A stretch of DNA of 64,000 nucleotides from a virus (IMGVR_UViG_3300032087_002755), one strand, 5' to 3'. Positions 30,732-58,407 are shown, counted from the stretch's first letter. The notes: generated by a model not told the origin, from the sequence alone. Numbers and translations are program-made.

Positions 30732-30781
30732 ATTTCCATAAATAGTAGTAATATCACCAAGATTGTGGTATAATTACTATT

Positions 30782-31981
30782 ATGGGTGCAAAAAATCTAC
30801 ATTTAGAACATTTAGAAGACGAGATTATCAATCAAGGGATTGATGGTGGTCGTGGTGCTATAAACTTCTTACAGGGTCTTAGAGACATGTTGAAGGGTAA
30901 TAGTAATTCAAGTGTTAATATGACAGTCAAATGGGACGGAGCTCCTGCTATCTTTTGTGGTAAACACCCCGAAACCAATCAATTCTTTGTTGCAAAGAAA
31001 TCATTATTCAATAAAGAACCTAAATTCTATACTTCAGAACATGAAATTAAAAACTCAGACCTTTCGGGTCAATTACAAGAAAAGTTTCTAACTTCATTCC
31101 AATGTCTATCTAAACTATCTTGGAATACAATCATGCAAGGTGATTTAATGTATACCAATGATAAGAAAATGCAAAAGATTGACGGACAATCTTTCGTCAC
31201 ATTTCAACCTAATACAATCATGTATGCAGTCAATGTAGAATCAGATTTAGGTAAAAAGATTGCAAACTCTAAAATGGGAATCGTATTTCACACTACCTAT
31301 AGTGGTGGAACTATAGAAGACCTATCTGCAAGTTTTGGTGCAAACATATCCAAACTAGGAAACAGTTCAGACGTGTGGATTGACGATGCAACATACAAAG
31401 ATGTCAGTGGTAAAGGGTCAATGACTGCAAAGGAAACACTTGCACTTACACAAGAACTATCTAAAACAGGTAAAGCCTTTCATGGAATCAAAAGAAAGGA
31501 TTTAGATAAGTTCCAAAAAATACAGGAAGAGATAGGTAGAAAAGGTGCTGGTGCATCATACAAAACATATTGTAATACACTTATCAGAGGTGGTTCATAC
31601 AAACCAACCTATGACGGATACATGAAACACTTTGAGAACTATTGGAGAGACAAAGTAGTTGGTAAAGTCAAAACAGAAAAAACAAAACAGATTAAAACAG
31701 AGATTGGTGAACAACTTTATAACGAACTCAGAAGTTTAAAGAAAATGATAACTAATCTTACTTCATTTATGGGACACTTGGTTGTTGCAAAACAAATGAT
31801 TATAGAATCCCTAAATAGAGTAAAGAGTATCGGAACTTTTAAAAAGACTGCAACAGGTTTCGAGGTAGTTAACCCCGAAGGTTATGTTGCAATTGATAGA
31901 ACAGGTAGTGCAGTTAAACTCGTAGATAGAATGGAATTTGCATTCAATAACTTCACTGCACAAAAAGCGTGGGATAAGTAA
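30782..31981 (+). CDS. DUF6267-like protein with covalent nucleotidyltransferase (RNA-ligase-like) motifs
   Basis: TVKWDG (motif I), QGDLM (III), EGYV (IV), AVKLV (V); CATAAATA at 30737. Confidence 0.65.
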   Translation: MGAKNLHLEHLEDEIINQGIDGGRGAINFLQGLRDMLKGNSNSSVNMTVKWDGAPAIFCGKHPETNQFFVAKKSLFNKEPKFYTSEHEIKNSDLSGQLQEKFLTSFQCLSKLSWNTIMQGDLMYTNDKKMQKIDGQSFVTFQPNTIMYAVNVESDLGKKIANSKMGIVFHTTYSGGTIEDLSASFGANISKLGNSSDVWIDDATYKDVSGKGSMTAKETLALTQELSKTGKAFHGIKRKDLDKFQKIQEEIGRKGAGASYKTYCNTLIRGGSYKPTYDGYMKHFENYWRDKVVGKVKTEKTKQIKTEIGEQLYNELRSLKKMITNLTSFMGHLVVAKQMIIESLNRVKSIGTFKKTATGFEVVNPEGYVAIDRTGSAVKLVDRMEFAFNNFTAQKAWDK

Positions 31982-33264
31982 TGAAATCATTCAGTGCATT
32001 TTTAACAGAAGCTAAAGACAAAGGTGTAGTGTTTACCTTTGGTCGATTCAATCCACCTACAACAGGTCATGCAAAGTTAGTAGACAAACTTAAGAAAGAA
32101 TCAAAAGGTGATGACGTTCTATTATTCACTTCACACTCAAATGACAGGGTTAAAAATCCACTATCACATAAAGACAAAATCAAATACTTAAGAAATTTCT
32201 TTGGAAAGATTGTTCCTGATGCAAATGCAAGAACAGTATTTGAGATTGCAACACAATTACATAATAAAAAATACAAAAGAATAAAAATGGTTGTCGGTTC
32301 AGATAGAATTAGAGAATTTGAAAACCTATTAAACAAATACAACGGAGTGAAAGCACGTCACGGATTCTATAAGTTTGACGAAATCAATATAGTATCTGCT
32401 GGTGAAAGAGACCCCGATTCAGATGATGTCAGTGGAATGTCTGCAAGTAAACTCAGAGGATATGCAGAGAAGGGTGACTTTGATAATTTCAAACAAGGTG
32501 TTCCAACAAAGAACAAAGGATTGATTCAGAAACTTTATAACGATATCCGTAAAGGAATGGGTATTGCAGAAGGAACACTACCACACTACATGGTTGAAGA
32601 TTTAGTTAAAGAAGGAGTCTATGACCCAGGCACCTTTAAAGCAGTTTTCCTAAGTGGTGGGCCAGGCAGTGGTAAATCTGCAGTCGTAAAGAAATTAGCT
32701 TTGACTGCACTTGGTTTAAAAATGGTCAACACTGATAAAGCATTTGAGAACGGACTAAAGAAAGCAGGAATGTCACTTGACCTTAGAGGTGCAGACTTTA
32801 CTAAAGTAGACCCTATCCGTGCAAAAGCAAAAAGTATTACAGGTAAAAATCTAGAATCCTATATCGAAGGAAGACTAGGTCTTATCTTTGACACTACAAG
32901 TGCAAAGTCGGGTAAGATTAAGAACTACAAAAAACTGTTAGACACATTAGGATATGAATACAAAATGGTATTTGTTAATGCAAGTCTAGACAATGCACAA
33001 AAAAGAAATGACTTGAGGTCTAGAAAATTACCATCTGAGATTGTAAAACAAGATTGGGACGCTGCACAAAAAAATGCAAAAGAATATAAATCAATCTTTG
33101 GTAAAGACTTTGTAGAGATTAAGAATGATGACGACCTTGCAACACTAGATAAAAAAGCAAATTCACTATACAGTAAACTGTTAGGTTGGTCTACTTCATT
33201 CCCTAAAAACAAACTTGCATTACAATGGAAGCAACGAGAGTTGGATGCAAAACGAACTAAATAG
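31981..33264 (+). CDS. HIGH-family nucleotidyltransferase fused to P-loop kinase (AAA_33/zeta-like)
   Basis: FGRFNPPTTGH, VVGSDR, MSASKLR; second domain GGPGSGKS, IFDTT; N-terminus MKSFSAFLTE. Confidence 0.8.
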   Translation: MKSFSAFLTEAKDKGVVFTFGRFNPPTTGHAKLVDKLKKESKGDDVLLFTSHSNDRVKNPLSHKDKIKYLRNFFGKIVPDANARTVFEIATQLHNKKYKRIKMVVGSDRIREFENLLNKYNGVKARHGFYKFDEINIVSAGERDPDSDDVSGMSASKLRGYAEKGDFDNFKQGVPTKNKGLIQKLYNDIRKGMGIAEGTLPHYMVEDLVKEGVYDPGTFKAVFLSGGPGSGKSAVVKKLALTALGLKMVNTDKAFENGLKKAGMSLDLRGADFTKVDPIRAKAKSITGKNLESYIEGRLGLIFDTTSAKSGKIKNYKKLLDTLGYEYKMVFVNASLDNAQKRNDLRSRKLPSEIVKQDWDAAQKNAKEYKSIFGKDFVEIKNDDDLATLDKKANSLYSKLLGWSTSFPKNKLALQWKQRELDAKRTK

Positions 33265-33268
33265 TATT

Positions 33269-34603
33269 ATGTTAGAAGAACTTAGAGAAAAATTACGTAA
33301 GACCCAACAAGACAAAGAAGTTGAAGGCAAGAAAGGTTCTCAACCTAAGAAGTATTATGCTAAAGACGCAGACGGAGACGAAATGTCTAAGTCTACAAAA
33401 GATAAACGTGCATCTCACTTTGCTAATAATAAAGATAAAGAAGGTGAAGATGCATTTAAACCAGCACCAGGCGATTCACAAGCTGATACTAAACCTTCAC
33501 AACACACTAAGAAGTATAAGAAAATGTTCGGAGAAGGTGCAGCCGATAAGTCACTTCAAAAGAAAGCAGATAAGAGTGGAATGCCAGTTGGTATTCTAAA
33601 ACAAGTCTACAAACGTGGTGTTGCAGCTTGGAAAGGTGGTCACAGGCCAGGCACTACACCCGAACAGTGGGGACATGCACGCGTCAATTCCTTTGTAACA
33701 AAATCAAAAGGAACATGGGGTGGTGCAGACCAAGACCTTGCAAAGAAAGTACAAGGTAAATCAGAGTCAATCGAAGAAGCAGTTGATATCAAAAAAGCAC
33801 TTAAGAAAGTTAAAGGTCTAACTAAAAAACAATTAGAAGTGTTATCAACAATGAACACTACTCAGATATCAGTTGTTGTCAATCAATTATCTTCACTTGT
33901 CATGGGTGAAGCAATAAAAGAAGGTAAACTTGTAACTGATTGGAGAAGTATTTTAGATTACATATTCAAAAATATCAAAAAAATGATTGAAAAAGAATAT
34001 GAAAAGAATCCCGAAAAAGGTTTAGGAATGATTAATCAGTTGGGTTCATATGTTAAAATGAAAGTCACCGATAAGAAACAAGAGAAGGGAAAACTATTCC
34101 TTAAGTTTGGTGAGGAGTTAGCAGAAGACGCTGCAGTAGACGCTGCAAACCTAAAAGCAAAACAAGTTGAAGAACTTGAGAGATTAAAACAAAGACATGA
34201 AGAAGAGTTAGAAGCACTTACTGATAGACACGAAAGAGAAACCGAGAAGGTTGCAAAACAAAAAGAAAAAGAAACACTAGACAAACAGATTCAATCAAAA
34301 CGTGAAGCAGATAGAAAAGCTGCAGAAAAAACAAACGAAGAAAGAGATTACAAAAAGGAGTATGAGAATTACCACTCAGACCCCGAACAAATTAAAAGAC
34401 GTGCAAAAAGAAATGAAGCACGTAGAAGTCTTAAAGATAGAAAAGACATTAAAGGAAAAGACGTACACCATAAGGATAACAATCCTATGAACAATGACAA
34501 GTCTAATCTATCAATTGTATCTCAAAAATACAACAGAACAGAACCAAGACTTAGAAAACTTAAAGAAAAGGGGTGTTTACCAAATGCCAAAAAACGGAAA
34601 TAA
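33269..34603 (+). CDS. Multi-domain late protein with C-terminal HNH motif
   Basis: YKRGVAAWKGGHRPG..QWGHARVNSF domain; KDVHHKDNNPMNN..NL..YNR; CTAAATA at 33257. Confidence 0.7.
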   Translation: MLEELREKLRKTQQDKEVEGKKGSQPKKYYAKDADGDEMSKSTKDKRASHFANNKDKEGEDAFKPAPGDSQADTKPSQHTKKYKKMFGEGAADKSLQKKADKSGMPVGILKQVYKRGVAAWKGGHRPGTTPEQWGHARVNSFVTKSKGTWGGADQDLAKKVQGKSESIEEAVDIKKALKKVKGLTKKQLEVLSTMNTTQISVVVNQLSSLVMGEAIKEGKLVTDWRSILDYIFKNIKKMIEKEYEKNPEKGLGMINQLGSYVKMKVTDKKQEKGKLFLKFGEELAEDAAVDAANLKAKQVEELERLKQRHEEELEALTDRHERETEKVAKQKEKETLDKQIQSKREADRKAAEKTNEERDYKKEYENYHSDPEQIKRRAKRNEARRSLKDRKDIKGKDVHHKDNNPMNNDKSNLSIVSQKYNRTEPRLRKLKEKGCLPNAKKRK

Positions 34604-35267
34604 ACACGACAACGGAGTACACGAACTCGGTACAGACGAAACAGTAAAAGCATATCAAGAAGATACGCCTGGTCAAGCAGTAGAAAAATACGTAAAAGAA
34701 AACCAAAAGTCATATCACGATTCAAAGAAAACTTTTTCTCAAATTGCAATCAACGAAACACTTGATACACTCCAACAAGAAAAAACCAATCTACTAGACA
34801 ATCCATTCCGTTTAGGTTCTATGATGTATTTTGAAACGATTAAAGAAGCACGTAGATTAGTTACAGAAGACAGATACAAACTTACCGAAGTAGATAAGAA
34901 CATTTTAGATACAGATATCGGACAGTTTGAAGTATATGAGGGGGAGTTAGTACCATTAGATTGTCCTCAATGGGAACCCATAAACGAAGAAGAAGAACCC
35001 GAACTCAACAAACCAAAAGCAGGTGGCCCTAAGAAATACTATGTATACGTTAGAGACCCACAAACTAAAAAGATTAAAAAAGTCACATGGGGAGACACTA
35101 CAGGTCTCAAAGTGAAACTCGGAAACGAGAAAGCAAGAAAATCCTTCGCTGCACGACATAAGTGTTCACAACAGAAAGATAAAACTACTGCATCATATTG
35201 GGCATGTAGATTACCTTACTATGCAAAACAGTTAGGTCTTTCAGACGGAGGAAATTTTTATTGGTAA
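34584..35267 (+). CDS. Conserved hypothetical protein (basic C-terminal domain)
   Basis: KKYYVYVRDP..KKVTWG..RKSFAARHKC..YWAC. Confidence 0.7.
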   Translation: MPKNGNKHDNGVHELGTDETVKAYQEDTPGQAVEKYVKENQKSYHDSKKTFSQIAINETLDTLQQEKTNLLDNPFRLGSMMYFETIKEARRLVTEDRYKLTEVDKNILDTDIGQFEVYEGELVPLDCPQWEPINEEEEPELNKPKAGGPKKYYVYVRDPQTKKIKKVTWGDTTGLKVKLGNEKARKSFAARHKCSQQKDKTTASYWACRLPYYAKQLGLSDGGNFYW

Positions 35268-35537: not shown

Positions 35538-35835
35538 CCCTTATAAAGACCAAGTATATACCCAACACGGGACTGAACTGAAATACGTCATTAGAACGTT
35601 TCTAAGGGACGTAGAGGTAGAGGAATTAGTTTGGCATAGGGACGATTCAAACAGAACCGTTCATATATTAGGGGGTGAAGGCTGGAAGTTACAGAAAGAT
35701 GACGAACTACCAGTTGAATTGGAAATAGGGAAAGATTATTACATACTGAAAGACCAGTATCATAGATTATTAAAAGGTGAAGGAGACTTAGTTCTTCGAA
35801 TAGAAAATGTACATTCATTTACAAAACAGGAATAA
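35530..35835 (+). CDS. Cupin-like small protein
   Basis: WHRD...YHRLLKG. Confidence 0.55.
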   Translation: MTNPYKDQVYTQHGTELKYVIRTFLRDVEVEELVWHRDDSNRTVHILGGEGWKLQKDDELPVELEIGKDYYILKDQYHRLLKGEGDLVLRIENVHSFTKQE

Positions 35836-36229
35836 AGAAAAGAAGGATTTGTGTCTTGAATGTGGACTTTGTTGTAATGGAAAGTTATTCAAACAAATGA
35901 TAATTACTCCTGAAGAGAGTAGATATTTTAAGAAAGATAAAACCCTTTTAAAAAGTATAGAGTTAATTGCAACCGATAATGGTAGAAAGTCCGTACATTC
36001 TTACGTAAAACTCCAAGCTTGTGACAATTTAGAGGAAGATAATAAGTGTTCAATCTATGAAAACAGACCACAAGTCTGCAGAGATTTTAAATGTGGAGTG
36101 TTAAAGTCATATGAAAAAGGAAATATGCACTGGAACACTGCACTAAATATTATCGAAGGAGTAAAGAATACACCTTCACGAGCAGGAGATAGGAAGAAAC
36201 TGCTCAATATTATGAACCTAAAGAACTAA
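35807..36229 (+). CDS. YkgJ-family Cys-cluster (Fe-S/Zn) protein
   Basis: CLECGLCC...C..L....CSIYENRPQVCRDFKC. Confidence 0.8.
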   Translation: MYIHLQNRNKEKKDLCLECGLCCNGKLFKQMIITPEESRYFKKDKTLLKSIELIATDNGRKSVHSYVKLQACDNLEEDNKCSIYENRPQVCRDFKCGVLKSYEKGNMHWNTALNIIEGVKNTPSRAGDRKKLLNIMNLKN

Positions 36230-40213: not shown

Positions 40214-40654
40214 ATGAAAACATTTAAAAACTTTATCTTGGAAGACGGTGGAAGTCAGATTCCAACAGACGGTCTTGGACTTTTTGCAAGTTCAGCTGGA
40301 CTCAGTTCAGAAAAGGTACCACATGATATAGACGATGCAGACGTTAAAGCTAAGGTTAATGCAATCTTAGGTCAAGCTGCAGTGTCAGAATGGTTAAATC
40401 CAAAAGCCTGTGTTGCACAAATGGAAGCAAAACTTTCTCTATTAGGACTAAACAAAACAGGTGAATCAGACATAGAATTCACTGAAGGTAATGGTTCTTT
40501 CGACATTCAATTCAACAGATATGGTGTTGTAACTGGTAAAACAGTTGATACACCTCATGACGAATTTGAAAGAGAAGAAAAAATCGTATCACTTAACGTG
40601 AAATACGAACAGAACGAAAACGGAACATATAAAGTTATCGGTTCTTTAGTTTAA
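40214..40654 (+). CDS. Probable head-internal protein
   Basis: N-terminus MKTFKNFILE matches T4 capsid-targeting pattern. Confidence 0.6.
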   Translation: MKTFKNFILEDGGSQIPTDGLGLFASSAGLSSEKVPHDIDDADVKAKVNAILGQAAVSEWLNPKACVAQMEAKLSLLGLNKTGESDIEFTEGNGSFDIQFNRYGVVTGKTVDTPHDEFEREEKIVSLNVKYEQNENGTYKVIGSLV

Positions 40655-41084: not shown

Positions 41085-41675
41085 ATGCGTATAGTCGACA
41101 CACTCATAGTATTCCGAATTCTTAAGATGTTAACCACACCTTGGAATAAAATGCAGGCTTTTAAGTTTGGTTTTATTGACATGAACGGAAACAGAATCAA
41201 AGAAATTGAGGACGAGAACGGGAAAATGGTTAAAAATGAACCAGTCACAAAAAAAGAAAAGTCTTCCCTCACTCCTCTACATAGATTGGTATTCAATCTT
41301 AAAAAAATAATCAACAAAGTTCCATTCGGTAAAACTCAATTTGCATCATATGTCACTGCACTTTTATTACTTAAAGAAGAATGTGATTTAGACAATGAAC
41401 AAGCAGAAGAGTTATACGAGAAGTTCTACAGATTCCTAAAAGACGAAGATTTATTACAACCCGAAATGATTACAGAAACAATCAATGTCGGTAGATTAGA
41501 ATTGGGAGAAACATATAATATTAGATTCCCACTCAAACAGCAAGGTGATATAATACACCAACATAGAGACCAAGTCCTTGTTCACTCTGAATACGAAAAG
41601 ATATATGGTATTCAAACATACATTGGATTTGTTAACGAAGAGAGAGTCATATTGACTGCAGATGATGTTTATTGA
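41085..41675 (+). CDS. Conserved hypothetical late protein
   Basis: FRILKMLTTPW..AFKFGFID..TPLHRLVFNLK. Confidence 0.7.
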   Translation: MRIVDTLIVFRILKMLTTPWNKMQAFKFGFIDMNGNRIKEIEDENGKMVKNEPVTKKEKSSLTPLHRLVFNLKKIINKVPFGKTQFASYVTALLLLKEECDLDNEQAEELYEKFYRFLKDEDLLQPEMITETINVGRLELGETYNIRFPLKQQGDIIHQHRDQVLVHSEYEKIYGIQTYIGFVNEERVILTADDVY

Positions 41676-42426
41676 ATCGATACAAGAAATAGATAACCTT
41701 ACCTTTGGTCAACAAAAGGACTTAAAGAAACCCAAGTATAAGACACTTACACTATGGGACGAAGGTTGGGAAACCATAATGTTGGGTGCATATCCCAAAG
41801 GTTCTAAAGTCGTAGAAGAACTTAAAGAAGTTCAGAGATTGGTAAAAGGTGCAACAGACGAACAGAAACAACAATATATCAATTGTGACGAAGACGGTGC
41901 ATACTATATCAAACAATACATGGACGACCATGACTTAGAATACAGTCAAGACACTATAGATTTTATTAGAAAACAGTGTAGTCCAGTAATCAAACACCAC
42001 AAAAACCATTTCAATCGTGCAAGACCATATCAAGTTGCAGAACATTTAGGAATGGAATTTGAGAGATTTAATACTGATACAAGTGAAACACCTTCATACC
42101 CTAGTGGACATACAACACAACCTTTAGTGGTTGCATTGTATTACAGTAAAATGTATCCACAACACCAAGCGGGTCTTATGAACGGTGCAAAGATTAGTGG
42201 ATTCGGTAGAGTCATAGCAGGATTGCATTATCCTTCAGACTATGAAGCTGGTGCAAAACTCGGTAGAGAACTATTTGAGTTTATGAAAGTAGAAGAAATA
42301 AAAGAAGATGCACCAATGAATTCTACAGGAGGTGCAATTAGTATGCCTCCAACAATGCAAAAAAAGAAAAGAGATAAGAGATACGATACAGATAACATGT
42401 ATAAACTCTTACGTAGATACATTTAA
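41662..42426 (+). CDS. PAP2/acid phosphatase-haloperoxidase family protein
   Basis: KxxFNRARP, PSYPSGH, RVIAGLHYPSD. Confidence 0.85.
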   Translation: MMFIESIQEIDNLTFGQQKDLKKPKYKTLTLWDEGWETIMLGAYPKGSKVVEELKEVQRLVKGATDEQKQQYINCDEDGAYYIKQYMDDHDLEYSQDTIDFIRKQCSPVIKHHKNHFNRARPYQVAEHLGMEFERFNTDTSETPSYPSGHTTQPLVVALYYSKMYPQHQAGLMNGAKISGFGRVIAGLHYPSDYEAGAKLGRELFEFMKVEEIKEDAPMNSTGGAISMPPTMQKKKRDKRYDTDNMYKLLRRYI

Positions 42427-55200: not shown

Positions 55201-55276
55201 GGGGCATTAGTTCAGTTGGGAGAACGCCTGCTTTGCAAGCAGGAGGTCATCAGTTCGATTCTGATATGCTCCACCA
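55201..55276 (+). tRNA. tRNA-Ala(UGC)
   Basis: Cloverleaf, G3:U70, TTCGA T-loop, encoded CCA. Confidence 0.97.
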
Positions 55277-55314
55277 GTTCGAGTCTTAAGACTTGAACTA
55301 TACTAAATACTAAT

Positions 55315-55932
55315 ATGAAATACTATTATACATATCGAGTTTTATTTAATAATGGTGACTATTACTTAGGCCAACACATTACTGATAATTTAGAAGATGG
55401 TTATACAGGTAGTGGAAAGAAACTCAATGAGAGAACAGACCCTTTCACATTTGATATACTAGAATACTACAATTCAGCAAAAGAATTAAACATTGCAGAG
55501 GCTGAGTTGATTGGTGATTTATGGTATACAGACCCCAAGTGTCTCAATATGAAAGAAGGTGGTGTTGGTGGTTGGACTGCAGTTAATAAGACTTTAGATA
55601 GGTCTTATATGTTGACTGAAGAGTATCGTGAGAAAAGGAGACAAATTGCAGAAAGATTACATAAGGAAGGTAAAATCAAGTCATTCACAAAAGAAGCATC
55701 TCTTAAAGGACTTCTTAGAACGAGAGAACTATATCCACAAGGAACATTCCTAGGTAAGACACATACTGAAGAGACTAAGAAGAAGATTGGTCTGAATAGT
55801 GCAAAACACATGAAAGGTGAAGGCAATCCACAATATGGTAAAATGTGGATAACCAATGAACAGGAATCTACAAGAATCAATAAGGGTGAATCTATACCCG
55901 AAGGTTGGAGAAAAGGACGAGTTATCATATAG
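55315..55932 (+). mobile_element. Free-standing GIY-YIG (Seg-like) homing endonuclease with NUMOD3
   Basis: YTY..YLG..H..GYTGSG, AEAELI, NMKEGG; HTEETKKKI; between tRNA genes. Confidence 0.8.
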
Positions 55933-56021
55933 GTGGGGTGGCAGAGTGGTTGAATGCACTGGTCTTGAAAACCAGCAAACTCGAAAGGGTTTCGTGGGTT
56001 CAAATCCCACCCCCACCGCCA
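55932..56021 (+). tRNA. tRNA-Ser(UGA)
   Basis: Long variable arm, CTGGT-CTTGAAA-ACCAG, G73, CCA. Confidence 0.97.
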
Positions 56022-56090
56022 TTTTCATAAAACCCTCTTATCAGATTCATTGATATGGGGTATAATAGAAGGTTAAAGGAGGTATATTAC

Positions 56091-56696
56091 ATGAAAAATA
56101 TACTATTAGGACTATTAGTCCTATCAACTACATTTGCATATGCAGATGTGAACGGAAGCATAGGTTACTCAAGTGACTATATGTGGAGAGGTGTCAGTCA
56201 ATCGGCAGGTGCATCATCATTAAACGCAGGTATCGAATTGGATTCTAATGGATTCTTTGTTGGTGCATGGGTAGGTGAGGTGGACTTCGGTGACGAAGCA
56301 ACTCAAGAGAGAGACCTATATGCTGGATATAATCTAAACGTTACAGATAGTTTAGATGTCACATTAGGTATAATCCAATATCGTTATGATAAAGGAGATT
56401 ACGAAACCATTGAAGAGGGATTTGTAAAGGTTGGATATAACAATCTAAACGTTGCATATTACTTGGATACGGATACAGAGGACGACTATGTACACCTACA
56501 ATATAGATTGTGGTTCATTGACGCACTTGACGTATCTCTCGGATACGGATACCATGATGAAGATAATGATTTTTCAGCATTGTTATTGTCCAAAACATTT
56601 AATGACTTTACACTAGGTGCATTAGTTATGTTAGACGAAGCGTTTGAAAATCAAACAACAGATTCAGTATCTTTTCACTTAACTTATAATTTTTAA
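56091..56696 (+). CDS. Outer-membrane beta-barrel (TIGR02001/TorF-like)
   Basis: Signal peptide, SDYMWRGVSQ, ERDLYAGY, terminal YNF. Confidence 0.85.
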   Translation: MKNILLGLLVLSTTFAYADVNGSIGYSSDYMWRGVSQSAGASSLNAGIELDSNGFFVGAWVGEVDFGDEATQERDLYAGYNLNVTDSLDVTLGIIQYRYDKGDYETIEEGFVKVGYNNLNVAYYLDTDTEDDYVHLQYRLWFIDALDVSLGYGYHDEDNDFSALLLSKTFNDFTLGALVMLDEAFENQTTDSVSFHLTYNF

Positions 56697-56699
56697 GTT

Positions 56700-57428
56700 A
56701 TGTGGGGACTCAGACATAAAGAGAGTGGTGAAATACGTGCTTTCTTTATGCATTGTCCCAAGACCTCGGGTACACGAATCCTTAGATACGTATCAAAAAC
56801 ATACGGTGACGAATATGAATTCAAAGCCATTGATACAATGTACAGAGAGGATAGTGTACTCCAACGGTCTATAGGTGAACGACAACTCATCTTACCCAAA
56901 TCACCAGTGGAGAATCATTCCCACTTAACACTTGGACAAGCATTCTACATGTATCCAAATTTAAAATCGTACATTGAGAGAAAAAACATAGACGTTTTTA
57001 CCATGGTACGTAATCCATACGATAGATTTGTATCGTGTGTAAGATTCATTCCAAATTTAATGATTAGTGATTTTGATAATCTTGGTCAGAGTGCAGTAGA
57101 CAGATTGAGTCTAAACGATTTCAATTACTATTACACTACACTTGCACTACAACCACAATATCTCTATTCCTATGCAGACGAGTCAGACACAAAACCTTAT
57201 GCACGGATTATTCATTTAGAAAAGGTGACTGGAACTAAATACGAAGTTACGAATGGAATAGAAGTTGACTTTACAGAAAAGACATGGACTAACGAACATG
57301 CAAGACAAGAGATTAGTGAGAATACAAGACATGTACCTTATTGGATTCCAAAATTTGAACTAGACGAAGGTACACGTAAGTTCGTAGAATGGTTTTATGC
57401 AGAAGACTTCAAAAGAATTGGGTATTAG
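56700..57428 (+). CDS. Sulfotransferase family protein
   Basis: FMHCPKTSGT (5'-PSB), VRNPYDRFVS (3'-PB), PQ, FYAEDF..GY. Confidence 0.8.
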   Translation: MWGLRHKESGEIRAFFMHCPKTSGTRILRYVSKTYGDEYEFKAIDTMYREDSVLQRSIGERQLILPKSPVENHSHLTLGQAFYMYPNLKSYIERKNIDVFTMVRNPYDRFVSCVRFIPNLMISDFDNLGQSAVDRLSLNDFNYYYTTLALQPQYLYSYADESDTKPYARIIHLEKVTGTKYEVTNGIEVDFTEKTWTNEHARQEISENTRHVPYWIPKFELDEGTRKFVEWFYAEDFKRIGY

Positions 57429-57470
57429 AATTATAGGTCAGTTAGGTAAACTTTTACTATAAATATATGT

Positions 57471-57920
57471 ATGACTCATAAACATCACATAATACCAAAA
57501 CACATGGGTGGAACAGACGACCCTTCTAATCTAATTACATTGACAGTAGAAGAACATGCACTTGCACATAAGAAAATATATGAAGAACATGGAAAAAGAG
57601 AAGACTACCTTGCATGGAAAGCTCTCAGTAAACAAATAGGCAATGAGGAGATATGGTTAAGAAGGTCTTCAATAGGTGGAAGAAATAATATGGGTAAACC
57701 CAAATCAGAAGAACATAGAAAGAAATTATCTAAATCAGTCAGTAAATACTTGACAGGTAAATACAAAGAAGGTGGTCATGGTGAGGAATTGAAACGAAAG
57801 ATATCCGAAAGTATGAAAGGTAACACCAATTCTAAGAACCACTCCTCTGAAGAATATAAAAGAAAACAATCCCTTGCAATGAAAAAGGCATGGGAGAAGA
57901 GAAAACAGAAGCTGGATTAG
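57471..57920 (+). mobile_element. HNH homing endonuclease with NUMOD3 repeats
   Basis: HHIIPKHMGG..NL..EEHALAH; KSEEHRKKLS; late promoter TATAAATA at 57458. Confidence 0.85.
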
Positions 57921-57985
57921 TTAAATCAGTATAACAATTGACTTGTAATCATTAGTAAGGGGAGCATAACCTCTATCCAGCACCA
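57911..57985 (+). tRNA. Atypical tRNA-Thr(UGU)
   Basis: GCTGGAT/ATCCAGC acceptor + ACCA; anticodon loop CTTGTAA; T-loop AGCATAA; D-loop lacks GG. Confidence 0.75.
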
Positions 57986-57990
57986 TATAC

Positions 57991-58027
57991 AGGGGGGTTG
58001 ACAATGACTCCCCTTTTTTCGTATAAT
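57991..58027 (+). promoter_or_regulatory. Early promoter copy 5 overlapping an intrinsic terminator
   Basis: TTGACA(57998)-ATGACTCCCCTTTTTTCG-TATAAT; AGGGGGGTT/GACTCCCCT stem + T run. Confidence 0.75.
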
Positions 58028-58033
58028 AATAGA

Positions 58034-58330
58034 GTAGGAAATCGAGACGGAAGTTAGTTGGTTGTGAGAGGTTGTTCCGTATAGATAAGGTGTTCCACAA
58101 TGTTAAAGTCAAATAAGACGTGGCATATAATCGTGAGTTGTGGAAGGAAACCGAACAGAGAAGCACTTGAAATCTTTGACGAATTGGAATAGTGTGGTAA
58201 ACGAATTTCCGTATGGTCACTACCTATTGACCTTAATAAAATTGGGGTAAGGCCTCACTAGAAGGACACGGTGTAAAGAATTGGGTATTAAAACCCAAGA
58301 CATTGAACGATTGTAGTCAAATAACAAAAG
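58034..58330 (+). ncRNA. Candidate large structured ncRNA of unknown class
   Basis: No + strand ORF in the track; own promoter; several nested helices; directly precedes tRNA-Asp. Confidence 0.6.
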
Positions 58331-58332
58331 TC

Positions 58333-58407
58333 GGTCTGTTAGTATATCGGTGAGTATGCCTCCCTGTCACGGAGGAGAGAGGGGTTCGATTCCCCTACAG
58401 ACCGCCA
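58333..58407 (+). tRNA. tRNA-Asp(GUC)
   Basis: CCTCC-CTGTCAC-GGAGG, TTCGA T-loop, GCCA end. Confidence 0.97.

Follow-up and report, generated by a model that had tools for sequence, protein, structure and literature searches.

A probable ligase-superfamily protein and its leader-bearing NMNAT-like–kinase partner in an enzyme cassette of marine T4-like phages

A stretch of 64,000 nucleotides from the virus IMGVR_UViG_3300032087_002755 (the window; positions are counted 5' to 3' from its first letter) carries two coupled open reading frames (ORFs), 30782–31981 (399 residues) and 31981–33264 (427 residues), joined by a TAATG stop/start overlap, which are the subject of this analysis. The window derives from an uncultured marine T4-like myophage with about 35% GC and nearly all genes on the plus strand, and the gene pair lies in the uvsX–gp41 replication region, downstream of uvsX–gp41, with a gp46/SbcC-like protein, the gp43 DNA polymerase, a staphylococcal-type nuclease, UvsX, the gp41 helicase and NrdA encoded nearby. 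The nearest named relatives of ORF 30782 are found in Methylophilales Melnitz phages (53% identity) and Pelagibacter phage HTVC008M (44%). It matches 408 phage records, mostly of Kyanoviridae cyanophages, in all of which the gene is labelled hypothetical, and near-identical copies are plentiful in marine metagenomes. A previous examination, made from the DNA alone and called here the sequence-only reading, had described the pair as late, candidate virion-delivered genes for a ligase-like protein and a nucleotidyltransferase–kinase fusion, serving either RNA healing and sealing or NAD salvage.

ORF 30782 encodes a full-length DUF6267 protein (Pfam PF19782, E 7.5e-103), belonging to a family for which a search of 1.8 billion representatives returned 2,591 related clusters at 50% identity. 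The motifs KWDG (residues 50–53), QGD (119–121), EGYV (366–369) and VKLV (378–381) occur in the canonical order of covalent nucleotidyltransferase motifs I, III, IV and V, and K50, D52, G53, Q119, D121, E366, G367 and K379 proved invariant across 73 diverse homologs (33–68% identity); a second K-x-DG, at residue 132, showed no conservation among homologs. The T4 record gives E227-GYVAV...GS..K240 for Rnl1 where DUF6267 has E366-GYVAI...GS..K379, with a spacing of 13 in both. The AlphaFold2 model of ORF 30782 is confident (predicted local distance difference test score (pLDDT) 92.7, predicted template modelling score 0.88), and begins with a long helix, followed by a core rich in beta structure (residues 46–202), a six-helix insert (216–346) and a return to the core (351–392). 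Among the top 50 chains retrieved with this model by the structural aligner VIA, 47 were ligases, with RNA ligases first and NgrRnl best (Z 8.2, 182 residues, 3.8 Å), and an independent wide structural search with an aligner other than Foldseek again put RNA ligases at the head, with NgrRnl (7.5), Trl1 (7.4), REL1 (7.2), Rnl2 (7.0) and Rnl1 (6.4). The ligase alignments reach over model residues 4–393 yet pair only about 180 of them. From the end-points of the Rnl1 match (model 1–392, chain 49–252) we infer that K50, E366 and K379 would lie beside K99, E227 and K240 of Rnl1. The ligase-type motifs named in the sequence-only reading therefore held up, being invariant in 73 homologs and supported by a confident model that matches the adenylyltransferase domains of ligases.

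Sequence comparisons with known ligases gave far less. An unfiltered HMM (hidden Markov model) of the family aligned best to T4 Rnl1 in the motif IV–V segment only, without significance. The Rnl1/Trl1-type family PF09511 was matched weakly by three of the 73 homologs (best E 6e-4) and not by the window protein; the Rnl2/Rnl5-type family PF09414 was matched by none of the 73 members, and the DNA-ligase family PF01068 by neither ORF 30782 nor its 73 homologs. Several results count against a ligase assignment. Foldseek alone returned no match to the ORF 30782 model below E 0.05, and the only coherent theme in its output was capping enzymes and DNA ligases; VIA Z scores of 7–8 fall in a range that the aligner itself rates as common or middling; PDB sequences, searched with the protein and with its profile, gave only low-complexity noise; T4 Rnl2, compared with the family by hhalign, scored a probability of 0.1, that is, no similarity; and motif V (K-x-K) lacks its second lysine, the segment reading K379-L-V381 with V381 nearly invariant. 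Nevertheless, because fold, motif order and invariance agree, we consider it very likely that DUF6267 has the ligase-superfamily fold. A protein atlas search for DUF6267 returned only unnamed viral clusters, and literature searches on the family found nothing.

Taken against the ATP-dependent RNA ligases NgrRnl (Rnl5, 5cot/6vt0), T4 Rnl2 (2hvq), T4 Rnl1 (2c5u) and fungal Trl1 (6n0t), DUF6267 shares the adenylyltransferase fold, the ordered motifs I, III, IV and V with their invariant Lys, Asp, Glu and Lys, and the absence of an OB domain: neither an OB fold nor motif VI was found in ORF 30782, whose chain stops one helix past motif V in the model. It differs from these ligases in having no detectable sequence homology to them, in two additions (about 130 helical residues inserted between motifs IIIa and IV, and the long helix at the N-terminus), in a valine for the second motif V lysine and, on most members, in a capsid-targeting-like leader; its activity is predicted.

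The product of ORF 31981 matches CTP_transf_like (residues 19–122) and then AAA_33/Zeta_toxin (220–385) in HMM searches, as well as a polynucleotide kinase family in PHROG (E 1.6e-9), and its named HMM neighbours were adenylyltransferases of nicotinamide mononucleotide (NMN) or nicotinic acid mononucleotide (NaMN), PSTK and polynucleotide kinase. In its model (pLDDT 82.5), disorder is confined to residues 1–11 and 197–204 (pLDDT below 50 in the latter). The best Foldseek matches were to NadR, which aligned over the full length and has its domains in the same order (1lw7, E 4.7e-7, probability 1.00; also 8x7f and 6gyf). With VIA, the N-terminal domain was closest to NadM (Z 13.6), the M. jannaschii NMN adenylyltransferase (NMNAT; 12.8), NadD-type enzymes (11–12.7) and PPAT (11.8), and the kinase domain to PSTK (Z 14.9), C. 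thermocellum Pnk (4gp6, 14.3, 161 of 171 residues, 2.8 Å) and T4 Pnk (1ly1, 12.5), with Kti12, Pnkp1 and the NAD kinase AvrRxo1 (Z 11.5) as further neighbours; NadR entered the kinase list only as a whole-chain alignment with a root mean square deviation of 16.8. HMMs, Foldseek and VIA thus agree with the sequence-only reading that a HIGH/TxGH-type transferase is fused to a P-loop kinase, and show the domain order to be NadR-like. The curated cut-offs for NMNAT and NadR were not reached (TIGR01526, 28.4 bits against 341; NadD models, 17–21 bits against 112–164). We rejected a reading of the first domain as glycerol-3-phosphate cytidylyltransferase: no such structure appeared in the top 50, and its named HMM neighbours were all NMN/NaMN adenylyltransferases.

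For ORF 31981, T27-x-G29-H30 and S154-x-S156-K157-x-R159 are kept in 33 of 33 sequences, and E211-G212 in 31–32 of the 33; E10 is kept in 28 of 30. The E211-G212 pair belongs to the LVKE/G site pointed out by the sequence-only reading (the slash marks the predicted cut), which indeed lies in the disordered linker between the domains. The segment around it, MVEDLVKE/G, lines up with the N-termini of stand-alone kinases, for example MERFLIKE/GLYDPGIFK, and we therefore regard it as a leader retained at the fusion joint. NadR (1lw7, 6gyf) and NadM or archaeal NMNAT (2qjt, 1f9a) share with ORF 31981 the domain order, the NMNAT fold, the (H/T)xGH and SxxxxR motifs and the P-loop kinase. Unlike NadR, ORF 31981 has no helix-turn-helix domain, scores far under the family cut-offs, carries Thr for the first His of HxGH as PPAT does, has a kinase nearer to PSTK and Pnk, and bears both an N-terminal leader and the internal leader-like joint.

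ORF 31981 begins MKSFSAFLTE, which fits the start MKTYQEFIAE shared by the T4 internal proteins IPII and IPIII (read from the T4 record); the common form is M-K-[ST]-[FY]-x-x-F-[IL]-x-E followed by a small residue. The first ten residues of IPIII are enough for head packaging and are removed by gp21 (PMC10229621, PMC9026906). In the window the strict pattern occurs on two ORFs only, 31981 and 40214; as a DNA pattern in T4 it has three matches, ipII, ipIII and gp61.1, and a reversed control pattern had none in five genomes. Across 80 IMG/VR loci, nearly all NMNAT-like genes had a strict or loose leader, which was also seen on DUF6267, stand-alone kinases and ORF 34494-like genes; none of 36 gp41 and none of 17 UvsX proteins had one. 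In Melnitz, four genes of the module bear leaders. The capsid-targeting-like start ascribed to ORF 31981 was thus confirmed as module-specific and matching the IPII/IPIII leader. A strict leader is present on 22 of the 73 DUF6267 homologs, and an N-terminal extension on most; ORF 30782 has none, starting MGAKNLHLEH with three stop codons just 5' of its ATG. A gp21-type prohead protease is encoded in all four complete relatives (Melnitz, S-SZBM1, S-WAM1 and the 195-kb G001), which were the genomes checked for the protease and for other ligases. A literature search for a capsid-targeting sequence in cyanophages found nothing.

The same leader was met on several small proteins. T4 gp61.1 (NC_000866, 18966–19130), a 54-residue hypothetical protein adjoining the primase gene, begins MKTFKEFIKE. 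In S-SZBM1 (OL473597, 122311–123125), the adjacent small hypothetical genes 191 and 192 begin MKSFKSFLSE and MKTFKQYITE and adjoin gene 190, whose product is a structural protein that mass spectrometry found in virions; genes 191 and 192 are likely cyanophage internal-protein analogues. In the window, ORF 40214–40654 may encode a small protein of the head interior.

Virion mass spectrometry has detected homologs of ORF 31981 in the cyanophages S-SZBM1, S-CREM2 and S-SCSM1 (PMC9146016, PMC10665884, PMC9602691), where the protein is named NMNAT, and the S-SCSM1 paper additionally cites virion homologs in S-CBWM1 and another estuarine phage. In S-SZBM1 the virion-detected enzyme begins MRFRQFIIE/A, and the adjacent DUF6267 protein (gene 141), which begins MAKNTHLEH and is leaderless, does not appear among the published virion proteins. 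We consider it probable, from the leader and the virion homologs, that the ORF 31981 fusion is packaged in the head. The sequence-only reading had proposed that both proteins are virion-delivered; this fits the fusion only, because the DUF6267 protein of the window is leaderless and its leaderless S-SZBM1 homolog is absent from the virion list. Like T4 IPII/IPIII and Alt, ORF 31981 has a 10-residue leader, a gp21-type protease in relatives and homologs in virions; unlike them, its cargo is neither a small basic protein nor an ADP-ribosyltransferase but a pair of enzymes of metabolic type, and its packaging and cleavage are predicted.

Table 1. Positions of the two genes, their motifs and domains, and related features in the window
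Feature	Position	Strand	Basis or remark
T4-type late-promoter-like octamer CATAAATA	30737–30744	+	One of three CATAAATA sites in the window, a number not above chance; suggestive only
DUF6267 protein, 399 residues, predicted divergent lysine-nucleotidyltransferase	30782–31981	+	Pfam PF19782, model, structural matches
Motif I, K50-W-D-G; K50 predicted AMP-accepting lysine	30929–30940	+	K50, D52, G53 invariant in 73 of 73
Motif III-like, Q119-G-D121	31136–31144	+	Q119 and D121 invariant
Helical insert, residues ~216–346, six helices, between motifs IIIa and IV, splitting the core	31427–31819	+	Secondary structure of the model
Motifs IV–V, E366-GYVAI...GS..K379-LV	31877–31924	+	Glu-to-Lys spacing 13, equal to T4 Rnl1
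Predicted NMNAT-fold adenylyltransferase fused to P-loop kinase, 427 residues	31981–33264	+	HMMs, model; TAATG coupling
Capsid-targeting-like leader MKSFSAFLTE, residues 1–10, predicted cut after E10	31981–32010	+	T4 IPII/IPIII pattern; disordered in model
NMNAT-like domain, residues 13–198, T27-x-G-H30 and S154-A-S-K-L-R159	32017–32574	+	NadM Z 13.6; motifs in 33 of 33
Linker and retained leader M204-VEDLVKE/G212, possible second protease site	32590–32616	+	Aligns with stand-alone kinase N-termini
P-loop kinase domain, residues 212–410, P-loop G226–S233	32614–33210	+	AAA_33, Zeta_toxin, PHROG, VIA
Next cassette gene, DUF5824 with HNH-like C-terminus	33269–34603	+	Start probably ATG 33269, not TTG 33215
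Second leader-bearing ORF, MKTFKNFILE, 146 residues, no family match	40214–40654	+	Strict leader pattern
PAP2 phosphatase gene, end of cassette	41662–42426	+	PAP2 fused to NMNAT-like domain in IMG/VR locus L033

Marine T4-like myophages share a conserved enzyme cassette, heavily rearranged and with shuffled domains, to which the gene pair belongs. An NMNAT-like domain lies downstream of DUF6267 in 42 of 46 loci, within 500 nucleotides in 33 of them, DUF5824 is present in 29 of the 46, and gp41 lies upstream of DUF6267 in 27 of 33. Single-chain fusions of DUF6267 with CTP_transf, some also with DUF5824, exist, and one protein (P0139) joins DUF5824, DUF6267 and the NMNAT-like domain. PAP2 also recurs in the cassette, the window copy lying about 8 kb downstream of ORF 31981. 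In two further proteins of 684–1325 residues (P0225, which also contains DUF6267, and L069:1734–3785), the NMNAT-like domain is fused to a RimK-type ATP-grasp enzyme and a retropepsin-like Zn-protease. Elsewhere in the window cassette, ORF 34494–35267 seems to combine two genes which relatives keep apart; stand-alone homologs begin MKTFHELAINE, which lines up with the internal KKTFSQIAINE of the window ORF and points to another leader retained where the genes were joined. The true start of ORF 34494 is likely the Met before PKNGNKHDNGVHE. A CxxCxxCC protein (putative zinc- or iron-chelating domain) is encoded within the cassette at 35807–36229. Two comparative surveys (PMC9503650, PMC5512222), as far as a search of their text for terms goes, do not describe DUF6267 or its association with NMNAT or kinase.

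The claim that the genes are late was not sustained, its basis being one promoter-like octamer beside genes of the uvsX–gp41 replication region. Position 30737, given as the start of the element, is not an ORF start and marks this CATAAATA motif in the 50-nucleotide gap ahead of ATG 30782. The window contains three CATAAATA and ten TATAAATA sites, every one on the plus strand, and several late-promoter-like sites directly precede ORF starts (36234 before 36250; 26517 before 26531). However, the TATAAATA count in the window is not above chance (10 observed against 5.9 expected, with at least 10 in 7 of 100 shuffles).

As to function, the leading model is that the pair heals and seals nucleic-acid ends, which we rank first because the ligase-like enzyme and the kinase both resemble nucleic-acid enzymes, and which we hold only tentatively, with catalytic activities and substrate inferred. 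DUF6267 would most likely charge Lys50 with AMP, transfer the AMP to a 5'-phosphate end and seal the break. Because ORF 31981 begins with a copy of the T4 capsid-targeting leader, the fusion most likely enters the prohead, is trimmed after Glu10 by a gp21-type protease and is injected along with the phage DNA; a further cut after Glu211 would perhaps release both enzymes. The ligase-like protein of the window has lost its leader and would probably act in the cytoplasm after expression. The kinase would phosphorylate 5'-OH ends for the ligase-like enzyme to seal, RNA being a likelier substrate than DNA, and the NMNAT-like domain would make or regenerate an adenylyl donor such as NAD+. This whole explanation, from cassette and ligase-like enzyme to packaged fusion and end healing and sealing, is the best we can offer, and we would put it somewhat below an even chance.

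T4 Pnkp and Rnl1 mend cut tRNA, and NadR couples an NMN adenylyltransferase with a P-loop kinase. The module resembles T4 Pnkp plus Rnl1 and bacterial Pnkp/Rnl/Hen1 in that a polynucleotide-kinase-like kinase adjoins a ligase-like enzyme. It differs from both in having no HAD or metallophosphoesterase domain for 3'-end healing and in the fusion of its kinase to an NMNAT-like domain, and from T4 tRNA repair in lacking any tRNA or anticodon-nuclease context; to our knowledge, the T4 repair enzymes are not head-packaged. A number of observations weigh against our explanation. No HAD, metallophosphoesterase, 2H or HD end-healing domain was found in ORF 31981 or its neighbours, and we know of no PAP2 protein that acts as an RNA-end phosphatase. 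The kinase occurs in only 19 of the 46 loci. In 28 loci the module has no tRNA genes nearby, and those of the window (Ala-TGC, Ser-TGA and Asp-GTC, at 55201–58407) are more than 22 kb away. The relative G001 encodes Rnl1, Rnl2, a DNA ligase and NadV beside the module, which therefore is not simply their replacement, and the authors of the virion proteomics caution that abundant proteins may carry over. We know of no role for an NMNAT-like domain in RNA repair, and healing and sealing leave this constant partner unexplained, so NAD+-based readings stay alive. As to the choice, posed by the sequence-only reading, between RNA healing and sealing and NAD salvage, no end-healing phosphoesterase adjoins the pair, no tRNA linkage was found, and NadV is absent from three of the four complete relatives.

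Among the alternatives, a role in NAD+ handling is the most probable, though still unlikely. ORF 31981 would then be a NadR-like NMN adenylyltransferase joined to a ribosylnicotinamide (or NAD) kinase, and would arrive together with the DNA to sustain NAD+/NADP+, either countering NAD+-depleting defences or recycling NMN from the host NAD+-dependent DNA ligase, and DUF6267 would be unrelated or a consumer of the NAD+ made. The full-length NadR match in the same order, the NMN/NaMN adenylyltransferases as best structural and HMM neighbours of the N-terminal domain, AvrRxo1 among the kinase matches and the virion homologs named NMNAT all agree with this, as do the phage NadR/NadM systems documented in PMC9503650 and the lack of an own DNA ligase in Melnitz, S-SZBM1 and S-WAM1. 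However, scores lie far under the NMNAT/NadR cut-offs, the PPAT fold is nearly as close, the kinase best matches PSTK and Pnk rather than the NadR kinase, NadV is mostly missing, most versions of the module have no kinase, and the tight coupling or fusion to a ligase-like enzyme would go unexplained. More unlikely still, the proteins may be polyvalent injected effectors, head-packaged enzymes whose targets at the start of infection would be host proteins or small molecules, altered by nucleotidylation, phosphorylation or in other ways, with DUF6267 using ligase chemistry for end capping or for adenylylation of proteins or small molecules instead of strand joining. The rampant domain shuffling with RimK ATP-grasp and Zn-protease, PAP2, HNH-like and DUF5824 domains in proteins of up to 1325 residues, the leader on many module proteins and the missing motif V lysine suit such a role, which fits the idea of virion-packaged multi-enzyme proteins put forward in PMC5512222; yet every catalytic residue for lysine adenylylation is kept, the nearest folds are strand-joining ligases, and a text search of that survey did not find the module families.

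Less probable again is a combination of the two chemistries, in which DUF6267 would draw its AMP from NAD+ or another dinucleotide made or regenerated by the NMNAT-like partner, within a leader-loaded kit of DUF6267, NMNAT-like, polynucleotide-kinase-like, phosphatase and ATP-grasp enzymes. We regard as still more doubtful that DUF6267 is a nick-sealing DNA ligase replacing T4 gp30 at the fork, with its neighbour only loosely related. The gene does sit directly downstream of uvsX–gp41, DNA ligases are among its structural matches (Z 5.5–6.2), and Melnitz, S-SZBM1 and S-WAM1 have no PF01068, PF01653, PF09414 or PF09511 ligase, nor NadV; but ORF 30782 has no OB fold or motif VI, RNA ligases outscore DNA ligases, a leader, as most homologs carry, would be odd for a fork enzyme, and G001 also has a canonical DNA ligase. 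That the motifs are chance look-alikes in a structural or non-enzymatic protein is very improbable: the want of significant sequence similarity to any ligase and the Foldseek result would allow it, whereas the motif residues are invariant in 73 diverse sequences, ligases make up nearly all top structural neighbours, and the Rnl1 end-points would bring K50, E366 and K379 near their Rnl1 counterparts.

Cyanophages, pelagiphages and OM43 phages are dominant in ocean viromes, and marine T4-like phages are among the most abundant ocean viruses. DUF6267 is a large family of such phages without assigned function, and its placement in the ligase superfamily makes its biochemistry directly testable. 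The leader offers a sequence-level explanation for the recurrence of an 'NMNAT/cytidylyltransferase' in cyanophage virion proteomes, and its presence or absence gives a simple rule for predicting which enzymes are injected. If the proposed reading is true, the common annotation as glycerol-3-phosphate cytidylyltransferase or a cell-wall auxiliary metabolic gene would be corrected, and the T4 internal-protein delivery route would carry whole enzymes of nucleic-acid or nucleotide chemistry in marine phages. Should the NAD+-fed ligase cycle also prove true, the pair would be the first example of an RNA-ligase-type system linked to NAD+ and would define a new class of enzymes injected for repair or counter-defence.

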